Below are positions 13,590 through 46,607 of a stretch of 64,000 nt of DNA, in pieces (the stretch's first letter is position 1; the number at the start of each line of letters is the position of its first letter). The notes under the pieces were generated by a model, which had not been told where the DNA came from, did no database searches, and saw only the letters and a program-made list of their open reading frames with translations. This DNA is from a virus (Duplodnaviria > Heunggongvirae > Uroviricota > Caudoviricetes): IMG/VR virus record IMGVR_UViG_3300029621_000179. One strand, given 5' to 3'. A program made the position numbers and the translations under genes.

Positions 13590-13700
13590 TTGTAGCATGT
13601 AGCTGGTTTGTAGCCGAGATTTCATAACCTTTTTTATTATTACTTTCTTTTATAGCTTTCTTATATAAAATTCAGCTACATGGTTGCTACATGCTACATG
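13590..13700. repeat. origin-like element: AT-rich core flanked by inverted arms each carrying three GTAGC iterons
   Basis: Left arm TGTAGCATGTAGCTGGTTTGTAGC. Right arm is its reverse complement, CAGCTACATGGTTGCTACATGCTACA. A ~55 bp AT-rich spacer lies between them, immediately downstream of the primase-helicase gene. Confidence 0.4.
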
Positions 13701-13838
13701 AGTTGAAAAGAAGAAAGGAAATTAAGAGAATGAACGGAAACCATGAATAGAGACAGGGCAGGCAGTTTTTGTGGGAGCCTATTTGTGGGCAAGGGCAAAG
13801 GCAGCCTGCTTTGTGATACAGGAAAAAGAGGACAGAAC

Positions 13839-14906
13839 ATGAGTAAAATTATCACCTGTGAACAGGTCAGCAATGGCCATCCCGATAAGATTTGTGATCA
13901 GATTGCAGATGCCATTGTGACCGACATTCTCCAGCATGACAAGAACGCCCGTGTGGCAATCGAGTGTCTGCTGAAAAAGAGCCAGCTTTTTATTGCCGGT
14001 GAGGTCACCACCGATTACCGGCCAAACTACAATCAGATTGTCCATGATGTGTTTAACCGCATCGGTGCTGAAAAGCTGGGATGGAACCTGACCGAGCTTC
14101 TCCGCATCGGCATTCTGGTGGACAAGCAGTCCCCGGATATTGCACTGGGTGTGGATAAGGGCGGTGCCGGTGACCAGGGCATCATGTATGGCTACGCCAC
14201 CAACGAGACGGCAGAGCAGATGCCGATTCCCTACATGGTCGCCACCAAGTTCCTGCAACTGCTGAAGAACTATCCGTCTAAGATGTTCCGTGCAGATGCC
14301 AAGGCACAGGTCAGCTACGATTACGACACCGGCCGAATCACCACCTTCCTCTGCTCTGTGCAGCACAGCCCGGATGTGGAGGTCAGCGACTTCCGGCACA
14401 TCATCGAATCCATGATGGTGCTGGCCGCCTGCGAGTACGGTCTGGATGGTGACTTCACGAAGCTGGTCAATCCGACCGGTCGATTCGTGCTGGGCGGCAG
14501 CTACGCCGACTGTGGTGTGACTGGCCGGAAGCTGGCGTGCGACACCTATGGCGGCATCGGTCGTATGGGTGGTGGTGCTCTGAGCGGCAAAGATCCAACC
14601 AAGGTGGACCGCTCCGCTGCATACATGGCGAGGAAGATTGCCAAGGACATCGTGCAGGCGGGCTACGCAGACAAGTGCGAAGTCCAGCTGGCCTACGCCA
14701 TCGGCGTGGTACAGCCAGTGGGTGTGGCAGTGGAGTGCTTCGGTACGGAGCACCAGTCCCTTGACTTCATCGAAGCCTACGTCCATGACAGCTACGACCT
14801 GACCCCGCAGGGTATCATCAAGCGGCTGGGTCTGCTGGATGTAGACTACAACAAGGTCAGTGCTTACGGTCACTTCGGCAAGGCTGGCCTTCCGTGGGAG
14901 GACTGA
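13839..14906 (+). CDS. metK: S-adenosylmethionine synthetase (methionine adenosyltransferase)
   Basis: N-terminus GHPDKICDQIADAIV and GAGDQGIMYGYA are canonical MetK signatures; RBS AGAGGA; ~355 aa. Confidence 0.85.
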   Translation: MSKIITCEQVSNGHPDKICDQIADAIVTDILQHDKNARVAIECLLKKSQLFIAGEVTTDYRPNYNQIVHDVFNRIGAEKLGWNLTELLRIGILVDKQSPDIALGVDKGGAGDQGIMYGYATNETAEQMPIPYMVATKFLQLLKNYPSKMFRADAKAQVSYDYDTGRITTFLCSVQHSPDVEVSDFRHIIESMMVLAACEYGLDGDFTKLVNPTGRFVLGGSYADCGVTGRKLACDTYGGIGRMGGGALSGKDPTKVDRSAAYMARKIAKDIVQAGYADKCEVQLAYAIGVVQPVGVAVECFGTEHQSLDFIEAYVHDSYDLTPQGIIKRLGLLDVDYNKVSAYGHFGKAGLPWED

Positions 14907-25292: not shown

Positions 25293-25643
25293 ATGACCAT
25301 TTTCAATAAATATTATATGATAGTCATAGATCAAGAGAGGAGAATGGTTATGGCAAGAGGTACAAGGTATTCACAAGAGTTTAAGGAAGATGCAGTAAGA
25401 TATCGTTTGGAGCATCCGGAGGTTGCACTTCGTAAGTGTGCTGAAAATCTTGGAATTAGTGAATCTGCACTGAAGAGTTGGATGAAATCAGCAAAGGAAC
25501 ATGAAGGAACTGTTCCGACCCGTGGTTCAGGCAATTACGCAAGTGATGAGGCCAAAGAAATCGCACGTTTGCAGCGAGAGTTACGCGATACGAAGGATGC
25601 ACTTGAAGTATTAAAAAAAGCAATCGGTATTCTGGGAAAATGA
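25293..25643 (+). CDS. IS3-family transposase OrfA (HTH)
   Basis: RBS GAGAGGAG; helix-turn-helix N-terminus (LRKCAENLGISESALKSW) and a leucine-zipper-like C-terminus; slippery A_AAA_AAA at 25613-25619. Confidence 0.8.
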   Translation: MTIFNKYYMIVIDQERRMVMARGTRYSQEFKEDAVRYRLEHPEVALRKCAENLGISESALKSWMKSAKEHEGTVPTRGSGNYASDEAKEIARLQRELRDTKDALEVLKKAIGILGK

Positions 25644-26563
25644 CAAAAACTCTTTACGCTGCTACATCTAGATATGTAGAAGAAATCAACAACCTGCCTG
25701 TGAAACGTCAAGTTTCTGTCAGCGGGATACTGAAAAAATTGGACGTTTCACGATCTGGTTACAATGCATGGAAGAAACGGGTTCCTTCGGACACGTCTAT
25801 TCGGCGAACCGTTTTAAAAGAAAAAATCCAAAAGATTTATGATGATTCACATCAAAACTATGGTGCTCCTAAAATTGCAGCTGAATTACGAAAATCCGGA
25901 GAAAATATTGCTGAAAAAACAGTAGGAAATTACATGCGTCAAATGGGAATAAAAGCCCAATGGATCAAGCCATATACTCAAACAACCATTGACTCTGATC
26001 TCAGCCAGGAACTAAAAAATATCTTAAACGAACAATTTAATCCAGAACATCCAGATGCTGTATGGTGCTCAGATATCACTTATATTTGGACGTATGAAGG
26101 ATTTGTGTATCTTACAAGCATTATGGATCTATATTCCAGGAAAATCATTTCCTGGGTGCTGAGTGAGACGTTGGAGGCATCTCATGTAGTAAAATGTATT
26201 GAGAAGGCAAAACAGTCCAGACATATTGAAAATCCTCTGATTTTCCATTGTGATAGAGGATGCCAATACGTATCCGAAGCATTCCGTAAGGCAACAGAGG
26301 GAATGCTTCACAGTTATTCCAAGAAAGCTTATCCTTGGGATAATGCCTGCATAGAATCGTTCCATGCCCTTTTAAAGCGAGAATGGATTAACCGTTTTAA
26401 AATTTTCAACTACACTCATGCATATAAACTGATTTTTGAATATATCGAGACGTTCTACAATACAGTCCGTATTCATAGTCATTGTGGATATTTATCTCCA
26501 AATGAATATGAGGAAGAATATCTAAAAAATCTGGAAATGAACGTAACATACTTAGCAAGTTAA
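25640..26563 (+). CDS. IS3-family transposase OrfB (DDE/rve integrase core)
   Basis: DDE region DITYI...FHCDRGCQYVS...ESFHALLKREW in the -1 frame relative to orfA. Confidence 0.8.
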   Translation: MTKTLYAATSRYVEEINNLPVKRQVSVSGILKKLDVSRSGYNAWKKRVPSDTSIRRTVLKEKIQKIYDDSHQNYGAPKIAAELRKSGENIAEKTVGNYMRQMGIKAQWIKPYTQTTIDSDLSQELKNILNEQFNPEHPDAVWCSDITYIWTYEGFVYLTSIMDLYSRKIISWVLSETLEASHVVKCIEKAKQSRHIENPLIFHCDRGCQYVSEAFRKATEGMLHSYSKKAYPWDNACIESFHALLKREWINRFKIFNYTHAYKLIFEYIETFYNTVRIHSHCGYLSPNEYEEEYLKNLEMNVTYLAS

Positions 26564-36901: not shown

Positions 36902-37219
36902 ATGACCCACGAAGAAGTAAAAGCTCTGGTGGAGGAGATGGGGCTTCCTTATGCGTATGACCATTTCGCAGAAGGGGAGAGCCCTGATCCACCGTTTATC
37001 TGCTTCCTGTATCCGAAAGCCGAGAATTTCGGTGCGGATAACCTTGTGTATCACCACTTCAACCGGCTGGACATTGAGGTGTACACCGATTACAAAGACC
37101 CGGATATGGAAGCAACTATTGAAGAAGTCCTGACTTTGCATGAACTCTATTATGAGAAAAGCGAGGTCTGGATTGAAACCGAAAAGATGTATGAAGTCCT
37201 GTATGAGCTGACCGTATAA
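36902..37219 (+). CDS. hypothetical tail-completion region protein
   Basis: 105 aa ORF located between the gp10-like protein and the major tail gene. Confidence 0.4.
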   Translation: MTHEEVKALVEEMGLPYAYDHFAEGESPDPPFICFLYPKAENFGADNLVYHHFNRLDIEVYTDYKDPDMEATIEEVLTLHELYYEKSEVWIETEKMYEVLYELTV

Positions 37220-37250
37220 GCCGGCCGCAGGGCGATAGGAGGAATAACCT

Positions 37251-37865
37251 ATGTCGAAGCAAAACAATAAGGTCAAATTTGGCCTGAAAAACTGCCACTA
37301 TGCAAAGGCGACCTTTGACGAAGATGGCAGTGTCACTTATGCAAAGCCGGTCCGCATCCCCGGTGCAGTCAGTCTTTCTATGGATGCCAATGGCGAGATC
37401 GAGCCGTTTTATGCGGACAATATCGCCTACTATGTCGTGAATAACAACTCCGGCTACGAGGGTGATCTGGAGATCGCGCTGATCCCGGAGAGCTTCCTCA
37501 CGGACATCATGCACGAGGAGCTGGATGGCAACGGTGTGCTTGCGGAAAACGCCAATGTGGAACTGGAGCATTTCGCATTCCTGTTCGAGTTTGATGGCGA
37601 CCAGCGCCACATCCGTCATGTGCTGTACAACTGTGTGGCAAGTCGTCCGTCCATCGAGGGTGAGACCAATGAGGACAGCAAGGAAGTCAAGACGGACACC
37701 CTGAACTTGCAGGCAACCCCTCTGGCAAACGGTTATGTCAAGGCAAAGACCGGCACCAACACCACCGATGATGTCTATAACAAATGGTACGATGCGGTCT
37801 ACGAGCCGCAGGCAGAAGCTGTGGACACCGAAGACACCAGTCACACTGAGGAGCCGCAGGGTTAA
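37251..37865 (+). CDS. major tail protein
   Basis: 204 aa; RBS AGGAGGAATAACC; phi13/TP901-1-like major tail sequence; it lies upstream of the chaperone genes. Confidence 0.7.
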   Translation: MSKQNNKVKFGLKNCHYAKATFDEDGSVTYAKPVRIPGAVSLSMDANGEIEPFYADNIAYYVVNNNSGYEGDLEIALIPESFLTDIMHEELDGNGVLAENANVELEHFAFLFEFDGDQRHIRHVLYNCVASRPSIEGETNEDSKEVKTDTLNLQATPLANGYVKAKTGTNTTDDVYNKWYDAVYEPQAEAVDTEDTSHTEEPQG

Positions 37866-37881
37866 GTGACCGACACACACC

Positions 37882-37899
37882 GCAGGGCTTCGGCTCTGC
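37882..37899 (+). repeat. hairpin GCAGGGC-TTCG-GCTCTGC (copy 1), duplicated at 38771
   Basis: An identical 18 bp stem-loop flanks both ends of the SPFH gene. Confidence 0.6.
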
Positions 37900-37927
37900 T
37901 TACATTATTATAAAGAGGTATACGATT

Positions 37928-38755
37928 ATGAAGAAAATTTTTCCTTTGTTCGCAGCAATCATCATTCTGGTACTGGCTGTCTGCTCGTTCCACATCATCC
38001 CCACCGGCTACACCGGCGTGAAGACCAGTTTCGGTCAGATCCAGGAGACCACCATCCAGAGCGGCAAGCTCAACTTCTGCATTCCTTTTGTGCAGAGCAT
38101 CCACAAGGTCAACAACAAGCAGCAGGATAAGCATATCGAAGCACAGGTCTGGGGCGAAGCCTCTGACAAGACCCCTGTGTATGCTGCTGATGTCATCGTG
38201 ACCTATCAGGTGCTTCCTGAGAAGAGTGCATGGCTGTATGCGAATGTGTCCGACATCAAGAATCTGGTCGGTGACGAGCTGGTGGCATCGGCAATCAAGT
38301 CTGCAATGGCTGAACTTGGCCCCAATGAGGTAACCAACCGCACCAAGATCGAGCCTCTGGCACAGCAGAAGCTGGCAGAGTCCCTTGTGCAGAAATATGG
38401 TGAGGACGTTGTGTTCGTAAACAAGGTCGTCATCAACGACATGAATTTCGAGGATGCCTATAACGAAGCCATCCAACAGAAGTCCATTGCACAGCAGAAC
38501 GCGGATAAGCAGAAGATTGAGAATGAAGCTGCCATTGCCAAGGCAGAAGCGGATAAGCAGGTGGCAATCACCAATGCAGAGGCGGAAGCTCAGAAGACTT
38601 CTATTGCTGCAGACGCACAGGCAGAGGCAAACCGCAAACTGGCAGAAAGCCTGTCCGATACGCTGATCGATTACCAGAAGGTTCAGAAATGGGATGGAAA
38701 GCTGCCTACTGTGAGCGGCGGTAATGCACTGGTCAGCATTGACCCGGCAGAGTAA
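37928..38755 (+). CDS. SPFH/Band-7 (prohibitin/HflKC-like) domain membrane protein
   Basis: N-terminal TM helix, then IIPTGYTGVKTSFGQI, then an Ala/Gln/Glu-rich coiled coil (AEADKQVAITNAEAEAQK) typical of SPFH proteins. Confidence 0.7.
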   Translation: MKKIFPLFAAIIILVLAVCSFHIIPTGYTGVKTSFGQIQETTIQSGKLNFCIPFVQSIHKVNNKQQDKHIEAQVWGEASDKTPVYAADVIVTYQVLPEKSAWLYANVSDIKNLVGDELVASAIKSAMAELGPNEVTNRTKIEPLAQQKLAESLVQKYGEDVVFVNKVVINDMNFEDAYNEAIQQKSIAQQNADKQKIENEAAIAKAEADKQVAITNAEAEAQKTSIAADAQAEANRKLAESLSDTLIDYQKVQKWDGKLPTVSGGNALVSIDPAE

Positions 38756-38770
38756 GAAACACGATATACG

Positions 38771-38788
38771 GCAGGGCTTCGGCTCTGC
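38771..38788 (+). repeat. hairpin GCAGGGC-TTCG-GCTCTGC (copy 2)
   Basis: Identical to the copy at 37882; followed by CAATTTTACAT. Confidence 0.6.
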
Positions 38789-38822
38789 CAATTTTACATG
38801 AAATTTATGGAGGATTACGATT

Positions 38823-39203
38823 ATGGCAGTTACAAAGAAAATCGAGATCGATGGCAAGGAAGTCACCTTTAAGGCAAGTGCCGCTGTGCCTCGCCTGTAC
38901 CGCATCAAGTTCGGCCGTGATATCTACAAAGACCTGCGTCAGCTGGAAAAGAGCGTGGGAGAGAATGATGAGGACAATTCCAACCTCGACCTGTTCAGTC
39001 TGGAGATGTTCGAGGACCTGGCATGGCTGATGGCTCGTCATGCGGACCCGGCAAAGGTGCCGGACAGCCCGGAGGAGTTTCTGGACCAGTTCAACACCTT
39101 CTCCATCTACCAGATCCTGCCCCAGCTGATCGAACTGTGGGGTCTGAACGTGCAGACCGAGGTGGAATCCAGAAAAAACCTTGCAAAAGTGAGCGGGAAA
39201 TGA
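38823..39203 (+). CDS. tail assembly chaperone (gpG-like)
   Basis: 126 aa directly upstream of the tape measure region; slippery A_AAA_AAC near its 3' end. Confidence 0.6.
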   Translation: MAVTKKIEIDGKEVTFKASAAVPRLYRIKFGRDIYKDLRQLEKSVGENDEDNSNLDLFSLEMFEDLAWLMARHADPAKVPDSPEEFLDQFNTFSIYQILPQLIELWGLNVQTEVESRKNLAKVSGK

Positions 39204-39364
39204 CCACCCCGCTCTTTCTGCTGCGCTGTGTACAGCTCGGTATCAGCATCGCCGACCTCGACCTGCTGACCATCGGGTTGGTCAATGATATGTTCACGGA
39301 GCGGCAGAATGACGACTATCCGTACAAAGAGCTGGCATCGCAGGAGGACTTTGACCGGTTCTAA
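38823..39364 (+). CDS. tail assembly chaperone G-T fusion via programmed -1 frameshift at 39173-39179
   Basis: A_AAA_AAC heptamer in frame 0; the -1 frame stays open to 39364 (EREMTTPLFLL...). Confidence 0.5.
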
Positions 39365-39415
39365 GACAAAAACAGACGAACGTGCTTATATCGCAAATGA
39401 AATAAGCACGTTCGT
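39362..39415 (-). terminator. intrinsic terminator (14 bp perfect stem) for minus-strand Abi transcript
   Basis: ACGAACGTGCTTAT...ATAAGCACGTTCGT with a U-run on the minus strand (CUGUUUUUGUCUUA). Confidence 0.55.
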
Positions 39416-39426
39416 CGAGTGAGCGT

Positions 39427-39464
39427 AAAGAAAAATCCCGCTCAGCCGTTGATGACTGGGCGGG
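39427..39464 (-). terminator. intrinsic terminator immediately 3' of Abi gene (minus strand)
   Basis: CCCGC...GCGGG stem followed on the minus strand by AUUUUUCUUU. Confidence 0.5.
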
Positions 39465-39471
39465 AAAGTCT

Positions 39472-40419
39472 TTATCGTTTGTATTGAGTCAGTTTCATCC
39501 AATTACTTGGAAAGCCAAGCTTATCATACAGTTGCTGCTGCGTGAGTCGGGAGCTTTCTTTTTGATATGTGCGAATGAGGCTAACAAGGCTTTTTTTGAA
39601 TTTCTTAAAGCTATCGTCAGAGAGAAGATAGCGGAAGGCTATAACTAAAGCGAAATAATCTCGTTTTCCCTGAGTGTACTGTGTTCCAGTTTTGGGAATA
39701 TTGAGTTTGCGATGAAGATTGGTGTCCGGAATATCACGGCGAGAAGAGAAACAATAGAGACACTCATTGTGTGCGCATACGTTTCTGTAAAAGGTTAAAC
39801 ATCTTAAGAACTGTTCCAGTTCCTTTTCGTTTACATGAGGATATTCTTGGGCAACGGCACTTTGCAGGGAGAAGGGCAAAAGCGAATACATTTTAGATAT
39901 TTGCCCAAAAGTCAATGCATTCACAGCAACCCAAAGCGGAACATTTTGATGTGCATTTCGCTGATGGACGAGATACGAATGATCTGTATCTCGATTGGCT
40001 ATTTTACTGAGAATATTCGTTAACACTGCGATATTGCGAGCATATTTCGGCTCAGAACGGTAGCTTGCAGTTGATATGTAGTGAGTTTGACTATCCCCGT
40101 GATGCTGACAAAAACAATAGGAAATAACCTGACGAATTTTCATTTCTACTTCGCACAGGTATTTAAAAGTAAGTTCTCGGAGTTCTCTGTCAAACTTATA
40201 GAGAGCATAGATATCCTCAAAAGTAGTATTAATGTATTTCCGAGTCATGGGGTTCTTAAATGGATATTTATAACCACCAATAAGGGAAAAATAGCCGATG
40301 TTAATTAAAGATTCCTTGGTGATGTTTTCATCAGAAATAATGAGTCCCTTTTGATTCTTAAGAATATCTATTTGCTGATCGTATGTTCTAAAGCGATCAT
40401 TCTGTAATTGATTAGGCAT
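39472..40419 (-). CDS. abortive-infection protein, Abi_2 (AbiD/AbiF-like) family
   Basis: RBS AAAGGAG; N-terminus MPNQLQNDRFRTYDQQIDILKNQKGLII and overall ~315 aa match AbiD/AbiF-like proteins; antisense to the tail operon. Confidence 0.7.
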   Translation of the reverse strand: MPNQLQNDRFRTYDQQIDILKNQKGLIISDENITKESLINIGYFSLIGGYKYPFKNPMTRKYINTTFEDIYALYKFDRELRELTFKYLCEVEMKIRQVISYCFCQHHGDSQTHYISTASYRSEPKYARNIAVLTNILSKIANRDTDHSYLVHQRNAHQNVPLWVAVNALTFGQISKMYSLLPFSLQSAVAQEYPHVNEKELEQFLRCLTFYRNVCAHNECLYCFSSRRDIPDTNLHRKLNIPKTGTQYTQGKRDYFALVIAFRYLLSDDSFKKFKKSLVSLIRTYQKESSRLTQQQLYDKLGFPSNWMKLTQYKR

Positions 40420-40449
40420 CTCCTTTGCCTCACATTCGGTAAACTCGTG

Positions 40450-40483
40450 ATAAAAAGAAAAGAGGAGGGCCAACAGGTCCTCC
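40450..40483 (-). terminator. terminator-like hairpin inside the Abi 5' leader (candidate attenuator)
   Basis: On the minus strand, GGAGGACC-uguu-GGCCCUCC followed by UCUUUUCUUUUUAUC; it lies between the promoter and the RBS. Confidence 0.45.
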
Positions 40484-40531
40484 CCCCGGTCTCAGTCCTC
40501 GCGAGTATCTGAAACCTGATCACTGAAGCAT

Positions 40532-40560
40532 AGTATAGCAGTTTGCATCTAAAAAGTCAA
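40532..40560 (-). promoter_or_regulatory. sigma70-like promoter on minus strand (TTGACT-17-TATACT) driving the Abi gene
   Basis: Read as the reverse complement of AGTCAA...AGTATA on the plus strand; near-consensus hexamers with a 17 nt spacer. Confidence 0.55.
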
Positions 40561-40697
40561 GACTTTGAAGAGAAAAACCGCAACGTTGCTTCGTGATTAT
40601 TATATGCTGAACAATTTGAATTGATACACAGTATTTGCCTGTCTGTTTTACGCAGATGGGCTTTTCTTATGCCCAAAACGAGGAGGTGGTCATCCGC

Positions 40698-43600
40698 ATG
40701 GCATCCAGAATCCAGGGCATCACCGTTGAGATCGGCGGCGATACCACAAAGCTCTCCAAAGCACTGGAAGGTGTAAACAAGTCAATCAAGGGGACGCAGT
40801 CCGGACTGAAGGATGTCAACAAACTCCTGAAACTGGACCCCTCCAATACAGAACTGGTCGTCCAGAAGCAGAAGATGCTGAAGGATGCCATTGAAGCTAC
40901 CAAGGAAAAGCTGGCAACTCTGAAGACTGCCGCACAGCAGGCCAATGAGCAGCTTGCCAACGGTGAGATCACCCAGCAGCAGTACGATGCCCTCCAGCGT
41001 GAGATTGTGGAGACCGAACAGAATCTGCGATCCTTACAGGACCAGGCGGCTACTACCAATGCGACTCTTGCCAAAATCGATGAAGCCGGAGAAAAGCTCC
41101 AGAACATCGGATCTTCTGTGGAGAATGTCGGTAAGAAGTTCCTGCCGGTGACTGCCGCTGTAACGGGTCTTGGTACGGCAGCAGTAAAAACCGCAGCCGA
41201 TTTCGATTCCGAGATGAGTAAGGTTTCTGCCATTTCCGGTGCAACAGGGGATGATTTTGACCAGCTCCGTGCGAAAGCCCGTGAGATGGGTGCGAAGACC
41301 AAGTTCTCTGCATCTGAGGCAGCTTCGGCGATGGAATACATGGCCATGGCCGGTTGGAAAACCGGGGACATGCTGAACGGCATCGAGGGCATCATGAACC
41401 TTGCGGCCGCTTCGGGCGAAGACCTCGCCACGACTTCGGATATCGTCACGGATGCCCTCACAGCTTTCGGTTTGTCTGCGGCGGATTCCGGGCATTTTGC
41501 AGATATCCTTGCAGCCGCTTCATCCAATGCGAATACCAACGTCAGCTTGATGGGCGAGACGTTCAAGTACTGTGCACCTATCGCCGGTGCGCTTGGGTTC
41601 TCGGCAGAGGATACCGCAGAAGCCATCGGTCTGATGGCAAACAGTGGTATCAAGGCTTCACAGGCGGGTACTTCCCTTCGTACCATCATGAACAACCTTT
41701 CCGGTGAAGTGACCTTTGTCGGTAAAAACATCGGTGAAGTTACGATTGCCACCAGCAATGCAGATGGCAGCATGAGGAGCCTGAATGATATCCTCGCAGA
41801 CTGCCGTGTAGCATTCTCTGGCTTGACCGAATCTGAAAAAGCATCCAATGCAGAGGCACTGGTCGGCAAGAATGCGATGTCTGGTTTCCTTGCCCTGATG
41901 AATTCCAGCGAGACGGACATCAACAAACTGCGTGGTGCCATTGAAAACTGTGACGGCGCATCCGAGAGCATGGCAGAAACCATGCAGGACAACTTAAATG
42001 GTCAGCTCACCATCCTGAAATCTCAGCTGGAGGAGCTGGCTATTTCTTTTGGCGATATCCTGATGCCCACCATCCGCAAGATCGTATCTGCCGTGCAACA
42101 GTTCGTGGACAAGCTCAACAGCATGGATGAGAGCACCAGGGAAACGATCATTAAGATCGGGCTACTGGCAGCATCCATTGGTCCGCTGCTCATTGTGCTG
42201 GGCAAGACCATATCGACCGTCGGCACAGCAATGCGGGGGTTCAGTTCTCTTGCAAAGGGTGTCCGGCTTCTCATCACCCATGTGGGCAGTGCCAGTGGTG
42301 TGTTCAGCAAGCTGGGTGTGGTTCTGGGTGGTCTGTCCGGCCCGGTTGTAGCAGTAGTGGCGGTCATCGGTACACTGGTGGCGGCCTTCATGAACCTCTG
42401 GAACACCAACGAGGAGTTTCGTACTGCCATTACCGGCATCTGGAACGACATTGTTTCCAAAGTGAAAGGCTTCTGCGACCAGCTGACACAGCGGATCAAC
42501 GGACTGGGCTTTGACTTTAAGGATGTCACAGAGGTACTGAAGGCAGTATGGGATGGTTTCTGTCAGGTGCTTGCACCGCTGTTTGAGGGAGCGTTCCAGA
42601 ATATTGCCACCATCCTAGGCGTCGTTCTGGATACCTTACTGGGTCTTTTCGATGTCTTTTCCAATGTGTTCTCCGGCAACTGGAGTGGCGCATGGGAAGC
42701 GGTGAAGGGTATCTTCTCCAGTATCTGGGATGGCGTGAAGTCCATTTTCTCCACGACCCTTACTGCTCTGAAGAGTGCGCTGGATGTGTTCCTTGGGCTG
42801 TTCGGTACGGACTGGCAGACGGTCTGGGGCAGTATCAAGAGCTTCTTCGAGACTGTGTGGAGTGGAATCAGCAGCTTCTTTTCAAACACAGTTTCCGCTA
42901 TCCAAAGTGTAGCAACGACTGTATTTACAGCAGTGTCTGGATTTTTCACCACCGTCCTTACGAGTATCCAGACGACCTTCAGCACCATCTGGACTGCCAT
43001 TTCCACAGCAGTTTCTTCTGTGATGAATACGATCCATGCCACGGTGACAACTGTGTGGACGGCAATCTCGACCGCGATCTCTACGGTCATGAACACCATC
43101 AGCACGACCATCACTTCGGTGTGGAATGGCATTTACAACACCATCAATCCTCTGCTGGATGCGTTCAAATATCTGTTTGAGACCATCTGGCAGGCGATCC
43201 AGATCCTAATCGGCGCAGCACTGACCGCAATTCAGACGAAGATCACTTCCATCTGGAACGCCATCGTTGCCTTCGTGACTCCGATGCTGACTGGATTGCA
43301 GACGACTTTCTCTACAGTTTGGTCAGCGATTCAGACAGCTATCTCCACGGTGCTGACTGCGATCCAGACTGCAGTGACGACGGTGTGGAACGCCATTGTG
43401 TCGTTTCTGTTTCCGCTGCTGACTGGCATCCAGACCCGGATGAGTACGGCATGGAATGCAATCAAAACGGTCATCTCGACTGTCCTTTCTGCGATTCAGT
43501 CCACGGTTTCTTCCATCTGGAATGCCATTAGCAGCAAGATCTCCGGTGTGGTAAATGGCATCAAATCGGTAGTTTCTTCCGGCTGGAATGCCATGAAATC

Positions 43601-46600
43601 CACGGTATCGTCCCTCAGTAACAGCATTAAGAGTGCGGCGGCCACAGCTTTTAACTCGATGAAATCCGGGATTTCCTCTACGATTTCCGGTATTAAGACC
43701 ACCATCACGAACGGTTTTAACAGTGCAGTTTCCTTTATCAAGGGTCTGGCTGGACAGGCGTTCTCGTGGGGCTCTGACATGATCGGCAACATTGTGTCCG
43801 GTATCCAGTCGAGGATTCAGGATGTGGCAAGTGCTGTATCGGGAGTGGCAGACCGTATCCGTTCCTTCCTGCACTTCTCTGTGCCGGATGAAGGACCTCT
43901 GGCAGATATGGAAAGCTGGATGCCGGACTTCATGCAGGGTCTGGCAAACGGTATCACGACCAACACCAGCCTTGTGACTGCGGCGGCGGAGAACCTGTCC
44001 ACCACGCTGTCTACCTCCATCACCAACTCCATGAGGGGTGTGGAGCAGGCATACAGTAAGAGCTGGGCAGCCATCAGCCAGACGGTGAAAACCGGAACGG
44101 CAGGTGTAAGTGCTGCGATGAGATCCGCATGGAGTTCCATTACGACCAGTACCGCCAGCACATGGAATACCATCAAGTCCAGTATCCAGAACAGCTTCTC
44201 GGCGGTGAAATCCAATGTGACCTCTGCGACAGCAGCAGTGAAAACGTCCATGACCAGTGCATGGAATGCGGTGAAGTCGCTGACAACGACCAGCTGGAAC
44301 GGAATTAAAACGGTCATTACCACAGCGTGGAACGGGATTAAATCCCTTACCACCTCTGCGACCGCTTCTGTAAAAACGTCCATGACCAGCGCATGGAATG
44401 CGGTGAAAAACCTGACGAATACCAGCTGGAATGGTATCAAAACAGTCATCACGACTGCATGGAACAGCATCAAGAGTCTTACAACTTCCTCTGTATCCGC
44501 AGTTCGCAGTACGGTCACAAGCGGCTGGAACACACTGAAATCTACCACGACCTCTGCCTTCAACAGCATCAAGTCCACGGTGTCTTCGGCAATGTCCAGC
44601 CTGCGCAGCACGGTTTCTTCTGGTGTTGCAAGTATCAGGAGCAGTTTTAACTCGCTCGGTTCGATTGCTTCTTCGGCATACCGCTGGGGTGCAGATATCT
44701 GTTCCCAGATGGCGTCAGGTGTCCGGGCAGCAGCCGGTTCCGTGATCGCAGCGGCAGAAAATGTCGCAAGCAGAGTCAGAAGCCTGCTGCATTTCTCTGT
44801 ACCAGATGAAGGACCTCTGTCTGATGCAGATACCTATATGCCCGACTTCATGAAGCTGCTGGCGACCGGCATTAAGAAAAATGTCAAGTCGGTGGTGAAA
44901 GCCGTGCAGGGACTTGCCGGGTCTATGAGCAACAACCTCACGACCCCGGTAGATTCTCTGGGCGACTGGATGGATTCCGTGGTCGGCAGTTTTGCTACTA
45001 CGATCAAGAAAAGTCAGAGCGGTATCGGTAGTGCTGCAAGGGATGTGGGCAGCGGTATCCAATTACAGTTGATGTCCGGGCTTTCCGGTCTGAAAACACA
45101 GTTCCAGCAGATCTGGACTGACCTGCAGGGTATCACCAAAACCGCAGTCGGCGGCATGAGCGATGAAGTGAAGCAGGGCTTTGCGGATATGAAGGATTCC
45201 GTTGGAGAGCTGAGTTCTCAGACCAGTTCTCTTGGAAATGCGATCCGCAGTCTTGGCGACACCTTCAACTCGGATTTCCTAAAGAGCCTGGGCAACGGCA
45301 TCAGCAAGGTCGGTGACACGGTCAATACGGTCACGGGTCTAGTGGACAAGCTCGGCTCCATGAAGAACACCATCGGAAATCTCGGAAATACGATGCAGAA
45401 CCTTGGCAATGTCCTCGGTACAGAGAACGGCGGTGGTCTGTTGTCCAACATCGGAGATTTCTTGTCGAAGATCGGCAGTGCAGATGGAGGTCAGATCGTG
45501 TCGAAGTTTGGCAATCTGATCTCTGGGCTGACCTCCAAAATGGGCGGTCTGGGAGAGGGAATCTCCGGCATCATCTCGAAGCTGGGAAGCCTTGGCTCCA
45601 GCGGTGGGGGAATCCTGTCGAATCTGGGTGGGCTGCTTTCCGGTGTAGTGTCGAAGATCGGCGGCTTAGGCGGCAGTCTTTCCGGTATCGTATCATCTAT
45701 CGGTTCTTCGCTGGGCGGTATTGCCGGGACAGTCGGCACAACGCTTTCCGGTCTGCTCGGATCTGTGGGTACGACTGTATCCGGTCTGGCCGCTGGCGCG
45801 GGTACAGCCCTTGCAGGCGTAGCAAGCTCCGCAGGTGGGTTCCTCGCATCCGCAGGCACAGCACTTGCCGGCTTGGCGGGTCCTGCAGGTATCGCAGTGG
45901 CAGCCGTTGGCGGCATCGGTCTTGGACTGACGAGCCTCTGGAAAAACTGCGATGGCTTCCGGGAAGGTGTCACAAATATCTGGAACAAGGTTACGTCGGT
46001 ATTCTCGAATGGAGTAAACGCCATCAAGAACGGTATTTCTAATGCGGCTTCTGCTATTGGCAATGTGGCATCGTCCATCTGGGGCGGTATCAAGAACGTG
46101 GCTTCTTCGGCAGTCAGCTGGGGCAAGGACATCGTTGGCGGTATCGCGGGCGGTATCAAGAAAGGCGTGAGCTGGGTCGGCAATGCGGTCAAGAGTGTGG
46201 CAAATGGCATCCGCTCGTTCTTGCACTTCTCTGTGCCGGATGAAGGACCGCTGGCAGATGCCGATACCTATATGCCCGACTTCATGAAGCTGCTTTCCGG
46301 CGGCATCAAGAAAGGCGAAGGCGGACTGATCAGCCAGATCAGGTCGATGGCAGCAAAGGTACAGCAGGGTATGGAGGGCATCAGCTCCTTCAGTCTGCCG
46401 GAACTGACCTTGCCACATTTCGATGGCTCCGGTTGGAACTTCCCGCAGGCGGCTCTGGCCGGAGGTGGCACCACCCGGACGACCAACCTTGGCGGTGTGT
46501 ATATCACAGTCAACGGTTATAATGCCCGGAACGACGATGAACTCGCACAGACCGTTGCCGATAAGATCAACGGCATGATCCATGAGGATGATTCGGTCTT

Positions 46601-46607
46601 CAAGTAA
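40698..46607 (+). CDS. tail tape measure protein (~1970 aa) with three internal repeats of a ~300 aa module
   Basis: RBS GGAGGTGG; N-terminal coiled coil and TM-rich middle; the triplicated motif SFLHFSVPDEGPL(A/S)D...MPDFM; its position is between G-T and Dit. Confidence 0.85.
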   Translation: MASRIQGITVEIGGDTTKLSKALEGVNKSIKGTQSGLKDVNKLLKLDPSNTELVVQKQKMLKDAIEATKEKLATLKTAAQQANEQLANGEITQQQYDALQREIVETEQNLRSLQDQAATTNATLAKIDEAGEKLQNIGSSVENVGKKFLPVTAAVTGLGTAAVKTAADFDSEMSKVSAISGATGDDFDQLRAKAREMGAKTKFSASEAASAMEYMAMAGWKTGDMLNGIEGIMNLAAASGEDLATTSDIVTDALTAFGLSAADSGHFADILAAASSNANTNVSLMGETFKYCAPIAGALGFSAEDTAEAIGLMANSGIKASQAGTSLRTIMNNLSGEVTFVGKNIGEVTIATSNADGSMRSLNDILADCRVAFSGLTESEKASNAEALVGKNAMSGFLALMNSSETDINKLRGAIENCDGASESMAETMQDNLNGQLTILKSQLEELAISFGDILMPTIRKIVSAVQQFVDKLNSMDESTRETIIKIGLLAASIGPLLIVLGKTISTVGTAMRGFSSLAKGVRLLITHVGSASGVFSKLGVVLGGLSGPVVAVVAVIGTLVAAFMNLWNTNEEFRTAITGIWNDIVSKVKGFCDQLTQRINGLGFDFKDVTEVLKAVWDGFCQVLAPLFEGAFQNIATILGVVLDTLLGLFDVFSNVFSGNWSGAWEAVKGIFSSIWDGVKSIFSTTLTALKSALDVFLGLFGTDWQTVWGSIKSFFETVWSGISSFFSNTVSAIQSVATTVFTAVSGFFTTVLTSIQTTFSTIWTAISTAVSSVMNTIHATVTTVWTAISTAISTVMNTISTTITSVWNGIYNTINPLLDAFKYLFETIWQAIQILIGAALTAIQTKITSIWNAIVAFVTPMLTGLQTTFSTVWSAIQTAISTVLTAIQTAVTTVWNAIVSFLFPLLTGIQTRMSTAWNAIKTVISTVLSAIQSTVSSIWNAISSKISGVVNGIKSVVSSGWNAMKSTVSSLSNSIKSAAATAFNSMKSGISSTISGIKTTITNGFNSAVSFIKGLAGQAFSWGSDMIGNIVSGIQSRIQDVASAVSGVADRIRSFLHFSVPDEGPLADMESWMPDFMQGLANGITTNTSLVTAAAENLSTTLSTSITNSMRGVEQAYSKSWAAISQTVKTGTAGVSAAMRSAWSSITTSTASTWNTIKSSIQNSFSAVKSNVTSATAAVKTSMTSAWNAVKSLTTTSWNGIKTVITTAWNGIKSLTTSATASVKTSMTSAWNAVKNLTNTSWNGIKTVITTAWNSIKSLTTSSVSAVRSTVTSGWNTLKSTTTSAFNSIKSTVSSAMSSLRSTVSSGVASIRSSFNSLGSIASSAYRWGADICSQMASGVRAAAGSVIAAAENVASRVRSLLHFSVPDEGPLSDADTYMPDFMKLLATGIKKNVKSVVKAVQGLAGSMSNNLTTPVDSLGDWMDSVVGSFATTIKKSQSGIGSAARDVGSGIQLQLMSGLSGLKTQFQQIWTDLQGITKTAVGGMSDEVKQGFADMKDSVGELSSQTSSLGNAIRSLGDTFNSDFLKSLGNGISKVGDTVNTVTGLVDKLGSMKNTIGNLGNTMQNLGNVLGTENGGGLLSNIGDFLSKIGSADGGQIVSKFGNLISGLTSKMGGLGEGISGIISKLGSLGSSGGGILSNLGGLLSGVVSKIGGLGGSLSGIVSSIGSSLGGIAGTVGTTLSGLLGSVGTTVSGLAAGAGTALAGVASSAGGFLASAGTALAGLAGPAGIAVAAVGGIGLGLTSLWKNCDGFREGVTNIWNKVTSVFSNGVNAIKNGISNAASAIGNVASSIWGGIKNVASSAVSWGKDIVGGIAGGIKKGVSWVGNAVKSVANGIRSFLHFSVPDEGPLADADTYMPDFMKLLSGGIKKGEGGLISQIRSMAAKVQQGMEGISSFSLPELTLPHFDGSGWNFPQAALAGGGTTRTTNLGGVYITVNGYNARNDDELAQTVADKINGMIHEDDSVFK

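Follow-up and report, generated by a model that had tools for sequence, protein, structure and literature searches.

A prohibitin-like SPFH gene and its paired hairpins in the tail module of a gut phage lineage

The stretch of DNA analysed here, 64,000 nt of IMG/VR virus record IMGVR_UViG_3300029621_000179 (Caudoviricetes; hereafter the window), encodes a 275-aa SPFH/prohibitin-HflC-like membrane protein (37928..38755, + strand), assigned from Pfam, PHROG, AlphaFold2 (AF2) and alignment evidence. Its gene is lodged between the genes for the major tail (tube) protein and the tail assembly chaperone, with an identical hairpin on either side. The explanation that we favour, with moderate confidence, is that a host gene was captured once and long ago, has been inherited vertically within the late tail operon between hairpins that are themselves functional, and serves at the membrane during the lytic phase.

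Insertion, inheritance and loss of the SPFH gene

A first-pass annotation of the window had placed the gene between major tail and chaperone genes, and the neighbours indeed match phrog_88 and phrog_709. Its further proposal that the gene had been inserted there was upheld once relatives were compared. In six annotated SPFH-less phages with a tube protein 58-67% identical (four NatCom phages, Terrisporobacter TPDSL_ph1 and Streptococcus Javan105), a 125-aa chaperone gene lies directly 3′ of the tube gene, and of the 80 loci drawn from GTDB species genomes, some 75 encode a tube protein 61-70% identical, all of these being SPFH-less. The tube-chaperone spacer in SPFH-less relatives is mostly 0-19 nt long. 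Because tube and chaperone genes are adjacent in more than 75 relatives, sequence comparison indicates that the SPFH gene is an insertion relative to the wider tail-module family.

Within its own clade, the gene follows the history of its neighbours. Homologs 74-81% identical occupy the same junction in the divergent loci L232, L235 and L236, and SPFH identity tracks tube and chaperone identity (r ~0.9) down to 74-78% identity. When tube and chaperone proteins were clustered by distance, the 54 distinct carrying haplotypes formed one exclusive cluster under three linkage rules, with an internal divergence of up to 28%. Base composition of the gene is like that of its neighbours (GC content 51.6%, and 64.5% at third codon positions, GC3), and purifying selection on it is as strong as on the tail genes, with a ratio of nonsynonymous to synonymous substitution rates (dN/dS) of 0.03, vs 0.017 for the tube, 0.02-0.08 for the chaperone and 0.05-0.08 for the tail terminator. 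These comparisons point to a gene that is not recent or mobile, but is monophyletic, co-diverges with its flanks, and is ancestral and almost universal in its clade. The first-pass annotation had taken the gene for a moron cassette, and had named as contrary evidence an ancestral, universally conserved tail-module gene without flanking repeats; the first part of that description applies to this clade, and the second does not, since the flanking hairpins are present.

The non-phage homolog closest to the protein is encoded by a chromosomal “prohibitin family” gene of Clostridia, a 300-aa open reading frame (ORF) in MT835486.1, whose product is 43.5% identical and of the same architecture; it differs from the phage gene in its bacterial context, in lying outside a phage module, and in being without the flanking hairpin pair. 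The stretch concerned (L240, MT835486.1 20871-31614) was deposited as “UNVERIFIED: Bacteriophage sp.” and is host chromosome: around the SPFH homolog lie two amidases, SfsA, an Fe-only hydrogenase, an acetate kinase and a PTA_PTB (phosphotransacetylase/phosphotransbutyrylase-family) gene. Judging from these sequences, the phage gene likely came from a chromosomal gene of the Clostridia type. On this view, the ancestor of one sub-lineage among the Lachnospiraceae-infecting, Heliusvirales-like siphophages would have acquired a prohibitin/HflC-type SPFH gene from a host in a single event; the gene would have landed in the tight tube|chaperone junction and been inherited vertically there since.

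At two loci, L020 and L032, the SPFH gene is gone and a single hairpin remains, with the left flank of the upstream copy and the right flank of the downstream one. Over 2500+1500 nt of flank, both match the gene-carrying loci L029 and L121 at 100% identity, so that these empty sites represent a recent precise deletion between the 18-bp direct repeats and not the pre-insertion state. The direct repeat has thus mediated at least one precise SPFH deletion, one hairpin being left. An assembly artefact is an unlikely cause of these empty sites: the same junction occurs in two metagenomes with no further empty sites found, and we reason that an 18-bp repeat is too short, relative to usual assembler k-mers, to mislead assembly. 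Three other contigs carry a 371-nt out-of-frame internal deletion of the gene and two carry 1-nt indels. Since whole-gene deletions, an internal deletion and indels all occur, the gene can be dispensed with, at least over short periods. Matched junction patterns recovered the filled junction from 71 IMG/VR and 116 metagenome contigs and the empty one from 2 and 0, respectively, and the gene is retained in ~99% of close relatives in the sub-clade.

The hairpin repeat

The first-pass annotation had reported the same stem-loop immediately before and after the gene, and the 18-mer, GCAGGGCTTCGGCTCTGC, was confirmed as an exact + strand match at 37882-37899 and 38771-38788. A third match was absent from the 64-kb window, even at <=3 mismatches; from shuffling, 0.06 matches are expected by chance, and 0/100 shuffles held two or more. 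Upon folding, both copies form a 7-8 bp stem closing a UUCG tetraloop, with free energies of -12.3 kcal/mol (z -3.6) for copy 1 and -15.7 kcal/mol (z -4.9) for copy 2. Copy 1 (37882..37899, + strand; GCAGGGC-UUCG-GCUCUGC) has a 7-bp stem with one G-U pair, is without a T-run and failed the terminator scan. Copy 2 (38770..38789, + strand), whose stem reaches 8 bp, is followed by CAATTTTACAT and passed as terminator-like; its tail, read as AATTTTACAT, is a weak T-run that satisfied a lax scan, and essential genes lie downstream.

The repeat continues past the hairpin in diverged form, both spacers consisting of hairpin, TACAT, A/T-rich stretch, GAGG and TACGATTATG (TACGATT-ATG). Given this likeness beyond the hairpin, the entire intergenic unit appears paralogous, with the hairpin as its best-kept portion. 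Ahead of the SPFH start codon (37901..37918, + strand), TACAT at 37901-37905 is followed by an A/T-rich spacer and a ribosome binding site (RBS), AGAGG, at 37914-37918; ahead of the chaperone start codon (38795..38813, + strand), TACAT at 38795-38799 is followed by a spacer and the RBS GGAGG at 38809-38813. In the window, TACAT adjoins a hairpin only at these two SPFH-flanking spacers. A promoter built on TACAT or on TTTACA-17-TACGAT was rejected, as the -10-like hexamer abuts the ATG and the transcript would miss the start codon, and promoter-like sites in total were fewer than the shuffle expectation. The covariance models of Rfam 15 gave no match at E<=1 in window positions 37200-40700.

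Among distinct cassette haplotypes, a stable hairpin is present in both spacers in 127/127 and the identical 18-mer at both in 94/127. TACAT lies 3′ of the hairpin in every variant of either spacer, including those of L232 and L235, in which the two hairpins are unlike in sequence, yet each is followed by TACAT and an RBS. The stem of L079 and L154 reads GCGGGGC...GCTCCGC, with A-U to G-C compensatory changes, and RNAalifold gave a consensus stem of 8 bp, of which 3/8 pairs show double compensatory changes. In a sub-clade at ~88% identity, the two spacers differ in their loops (UUCG and GGAG). Among the haplotypes as a whole, loop variants confined to one spacer occur in 11 and 3, the two sites mutating independently, and on account of these one-site variants an ongoing gene conversion homogenising the hairpins is not supported. 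Because divergent carriers with non-identical hairpins keep the structure through compensatory changes, covariation argues that the hairpins are functional RNA elements rather than mere scars. They are probably 3′ stabilisers or protectors, or leaky attenuators, given that U-tracts are wanting and that essential genes lie downstream, which together suggest attenuation or 3′-end protection.

The 18-mer is a generic, very stable module and no unique element. In IMG/VR (loci L417-L513), at least 63 distinct, unrelated phage contexts carry its core at the top of a longer terminator-like hairpin, in many cases with a T-run behind it; two composition-matched control hairpins were found in 22 and 16 IMG/VR contexts, the core being ~3-4x commoner. 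At the SPFH-less locus L158 (70% tube identity), AAAAGGCAGGGCTTAGGCTCTGCCTTTTT lies between the tube and chaperone genes (L158:3600-3680), with the same stem in a canonical, bidirectional-looking A-tract/T-tract terminator.

The SPFH protein, its relatives and its genomic setting

The domain layout proposed by the first-pass annotation, a transmembrane (TM) anchor followed by an SPFH domain and a coiled coil, agreed with Pfam, sequence matches in the PDB, AF2 and Foldseek. The TM anchor spans aa 4-23, Band_7 aa 23-209 and the coiled-coil helix aa 174-249, and the C-terminus carries a conserved YQKxQKWDGKLP motif. Pfam Band_7/SPFH (PF01145) matched over profile positions 2-175 of 176 (E 2.2e-17), its 64.1 bits exceeding the cutoff of 23.6 bits, and phrog_200 matched aa 1-266 (E 4.8e-39). 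The AF2 model (predicted local distance difference test, pLDDT, 76) consists of a helix at 5-20, an alpha/beta SPFH fold of strands at 21-95 plus helices, and a long helix of ~75 residues at 174-249. When used as a Foldseek query, its top 30 matches were all prohibitin, erlin, HflK/C, stomatin or QmcA (probability 1.00), the top ones being cage-forming SPFH proteins (E 1e-14 to 1e-9). By sequence, the nearest solved structures are PHB1/2, HflC, QmcA and HflK (E ~1e-5). The N-terminus reads MKK followed by ~20 hydrophobic residues, and its Lys/Arg-rich start is kept in 25 homologs (71-97% identity). From this sequence the protein is predicted to be TM-anchored, probably with the topology of HflC, i.e. 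with the N-terminus inside the cell and the remaining parts (SPFH domain, coiled coil) outside. The label of phrog_200, bacterial lipoprotein, was rejected: the lipobox [LVI][ASTVI][GAS]C is unmet by L-A-V-C, which has Val at -1, and Cys19 is not conserved, being R, Q, L, T or S in the 25-homolog alignment. An identical protein is already deposited at NCBI (DAW86232.1); the protein is found on 108 contigs, and its cluster at 90% identity has 3249 members.

Among solved structures, HflK/HflC (the FtsH modulator cage of E. coli) and PHB1/PHB2 are the best matches in both sequence and fold. They share with the window protein a short positive N-terminus, a single TM helix, an SPFH domain and a long coiled coil and, for HflC, the predicted orientation. 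They differ from it in identity (~17-23%) and in being paralog pairs, where the window holds one gene: between tube and chaperone the SPFH gene stands alone, with no adjacent second SPFH paralog of the hflK-hflC type and no adjacent NfeD partner. Scores also remained below the HflC/HflK equivalog cutoffs (NF008259, 29.1 vs 427 bits; TIGR01932, 21.7 vs 134.4 bits). A link through NfeD homology to the ClpP-like prohead protease was considered and rejected, as SPFH-less relatives carry the same protease type; the weak NfeD1b_N match of the L235 prohead protease reflects ClpP-fold homology. Against PADLOC-DB v2, the SPFH protein matched 0 families at E<=0.01, and a neighbouring gene matched AbiD at 3.5e-62.

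A tblastn search found SPFH homologs in 31 records of a phage collection, the phage-family homologs being 24-30% identical over >90% of the length. They include FP_Toutatis gp21 (Faecalibacterium), Skarpretter gp07 (Escherichia) and ProddE gp010 (Desulfovibrio), and further carriers are the Bacillus phages AR9/PBS1 and the T4-like phages 44RR, Aeh1 and RB43. Two of the carriers, ProddE (Autographiviridae) and Skarpretter, are strictly lytic. Phage proteins of phrog_200 share family, size and TM-SPFH-coiled-coil layout with the window protein, whereas their genes differ in position, lying among early/replication genes (in ProddE, Skarpretter, Toutatis, Lelie and phiFN37) and not, as in the window, in a hairpin-flanked position in a late tail operon. 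SPFH ORFs were listed in phages by 2006 (PMC1524935), and a 2026 paper still called their role unclear (PMC13239085). Our literature searches found no characterised function for a phage SPFH protein, and the paper describing Heliusvirales mentions neither SPFH nor prohibitin. The window gene belongs to a phage gene family already known, and the locus does not overturn current understanding.

The window is entirely phage. Upstream of the SPFH gene, the tube gene (37251..37865, + strand) matched phrog_88 at E 3.7e-59 and Pfam L_lac_phage_MSP at E 1.4e-7. Downstream, the chaperone gene (38823..39364, + strand; phrog_709, E 1e-39) comprises a 126-aa frame at 38823-39203 and a -1 extension to 39364. 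A canonical -1 slippery heptamer, A_AAA_AAC (39173-39179), lies near the end of the first frame, and the -1 frame is open over 39023-39364, in the manner of the G/GT-type programmed frameshift of tail assembly chaperones. In L079 and L080, an extra ORF of ~270 aa, by eye HNH/AP2-type homing endonuclease-like, lies between the second hairpin and the chaperone gene; it uses the RBS of that spacer and supplies a new one for the chaperone, a second independent in-operon insertion at this junction.

On the opposite strand, an Abi_2/AbiD gene (39472..40560, - strand; gene 39472-40473; Pfam Abi_2, E 9e-47; PADLOC AbiD, E 3.5e-62) has its own extended -10 promoter (40560..40532; 10/12 with TG), a GC content of 38.5% vs 52-54% in its neighbours, and a patchy distribution, with only ~10% of close relatives possessing it. 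Lying at the chaperone|tape-measure junction, this gene is a true moron and an internal contrast to the SPFH gene. The junction holds other cargo in relatives, e.g. YoeB/RelB plus Abi_2 in L232. The tape measure protein that follows (40635-46607) is 1990 aa long and contains three copies of a ...RSFLHFSVPDEGPL..MPDFM... module. Tape measures reach 1857-1941 aa in other SPFH carriers and 937-983 aa, about half, in SPFH-less relatives, a co-occurrence of length and SPFH gene that stems from a single evolutionary event.

Elsewhere, the window encodes replication-type functions (DUF2800 nuclease, DNA polymerase A, SNF2 helicase, D5-like primase, S-adenosylmethionine synthetase and methylases) and morphogenesis functions (terminase, portal, ClpP-type protease, capsid, neck and tail terminator). 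The S-adenosylmethionine synthetase (13743-14906) matched all three Pfam MetK domains, and a triple GCTACATG repeat (13695-13720) lies directly 5′ of its gene. An IS3-family transposase (rve integrase core plus HTH_21; 25640-26563) sits between the replication and packaging modules. Close relatives reside in bacterial genomes, e.g. those of Clostridium fessum SNUG30386 and Blautia faecis DFI.3.66, whose loci are 99-100% identical; relatives at a greater distance bear the annotation Ca. Heliusvirales gut phages, and a megablast search against deposited phages found no close relative of the window.

Alternative explanations and possible function

In the strict sense of the term, the moron of the first-pass annotation was not borne out. 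No sigma-70-like promoter was detected on the + strand upstream of 37928, neither in the 62-nt spacer nor in the tube 3′ end, by a scan that covered the sigma-70-type consensus only; the gene lies on the operon strand, and its GC and GC3 are those of its neighbours. From sequence, we read it as part of the late tail operon, without a promoter of its own. Read as a classical moron, the gene would form a self-contained cassette that includes a terminator, would be expressed in the repressed prophage and would confer on the lysogen superinfection exclusion or another conversion phenotype. In favour of this, it encodes a membrane protein and sits between genes that are adjacent in relatives, in a tail region that is a moron hot spot (with Abi, YoeB/RelB and HNH insertions in relatives), HK97 gp15, between chaperone and tape measure genes, being a comparable case, and the downstream hairpin does pass a lax terminator scan; a prophage HflK/C-like protein is moreover a reported virulence factor in Pasteurella (PMC9872710). 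We nonetheless consider this origin unlikely, as the missing promoter and operon-like strand and composition are joined by vertical inheritance with ~99% retention and no patchiness, by homologs in strictly lytic phages, by the absence of a PADLOC match, and by the neighbouring Abi gene, which exemplifies an autonomous unit of this genome. Likewise, tail morons of lambdoid phages and siphophages resemble the locus in adding a membrane-protein gene between tail genes with a hairpin downstream, and differ in that the SPFH gene lacks its own promoter, a compositional signature and a patchy distribution; it has the look of a gene domesticated long ago within the operon. Lysogenic conversion, suggested by the first-pass annotation, is disfavoured by the late-operon position and by the homologs in strictly lytic phages, and for the same reasons a lytic-phase role appears the likelier of the two.

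The fixed place in the operon could also mean that the protein is itself a working part of tail morphogenesis, for instance one that handles the doubled-length tape measure at the membrane. The position inside the tail module has been kept over long divergence, dN/dS is as low as for structural genes, and the tape measures of carriers (1857-1990 aa) contrast with those of SPFH-less relatives (937-983 aa). That correlation comes from a single evolutionary event, however, SPFH is absent from more than 75 relatives that make the same tail, the whole-gene deletions, out-of-frame internal deletion and frameshifts occur in otherwise intact contigs, and a TM-anchored, probably outward-facing protein would be ill-placed for tail assembly in the cytoplasm, all of which makes a tail part very improbable. 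Another alternative concerns the hairpins, whose identity could be the scar of an insertion, with a terminator or target duplicated at cassette entry and not selected independently as RNA elements; this bears on the origin of the repeat only, and is compatible with hairpins that are functional today. An empty site does consist of one hairpin within the outer flanks of the two copies, the two spacers are paralogous past the hairpin (common TACAT, RBS and TACGATTATG), and L158 shows that a hairpin can sit at the tube|chaperone junction without the gene. Yet the empty sites are recent deletions, the hairpins of divergent carriers differ between the two sites, the sites mutate independently, compensatory changes maintain the stems, and the 18-mer core is a commonplace terminator-like apex in the at least 63 unrelated IMG/VR contexts. 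We regard the scar as possible, although less likely than not. The proposal of the first-pass annotation that a cassette was carried in with its terminator also falls short: the empty sites do not record the state before insertion, and in both L232 and L235 the hairpins differ mutually, so that hairpin identity is not necessarily an insertion scar.

Under the capture and in-operon inheritance that we favour, the hairpins would act in RNA as 3′-end protectors or leaky attenuators and, with the TACAT/AU-rich stretch (possibly a cleavage site), would lower expression from the abundant tube to SPFH, chaperone and tape measure, thereby setting a stoichiometry of tube >> SPFH/chaperone/tape measure. 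The SPFH protein would insert with its N-terminus in, so that its SPFH domain and coiled coil would face outward from the cytoplasmic membrane, and would oligomerise late in infection into a cage that sequesters or organises a membrane component. It would do so in the lytic phase, not as a conversion function expressed from the prophage, with host FtsH, lysis timing or membrane integrity, and the blocking of a second phage's DNA entry as leading candidates. The most likely mechanism would be a membrane cage or scaffold whose target is FtsH, the timing of lysis, the integrity of the membrane or infection by a second phage. Its specific form, a late outer-face cage that either encloses FtsH or another machine, with consequences for lysis timing or the stability of phage membrane proteins, or blocks genome entry by competitors, is a tentative suggestion.

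Several points weigh against this account. The promoter scan was of the sigma-70 type only, and a weak or alternative-sigma promoter inside the tube 3′ end is possible. Neither hairpin has a proper U-tract, and the sequence would fit termination, stabilisation or processing alike; a duplication of the hairpin may date from the insertion, or the upstream hairpin may have been replaced later. The positive-inside rule is the sole guide to the predicted topology. Finally, given the missing paralog pair and NfeD partner and the sub-cutoff HflC score, regulation of FtsH is proposed by analogy only.

If the cage reading is true, it would provide a first function for a phage gene family noted since 2006. 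Phage SPFH/prohibitin genes are widespread, and the lineage carrying this one is common in human gut metagenomes. At this one locus, an insertion domesticated within an operon can be compared with a true moron (Abi_2), and an 18-bp hairpin repeat is seen to bring about the exact loss of a gene. With its strong constraint, its fixed place in a late operon and its natural isogenic variants without the gene, it offers a convenient system for studying what benefit an SPFH scaffold brings to a phage.

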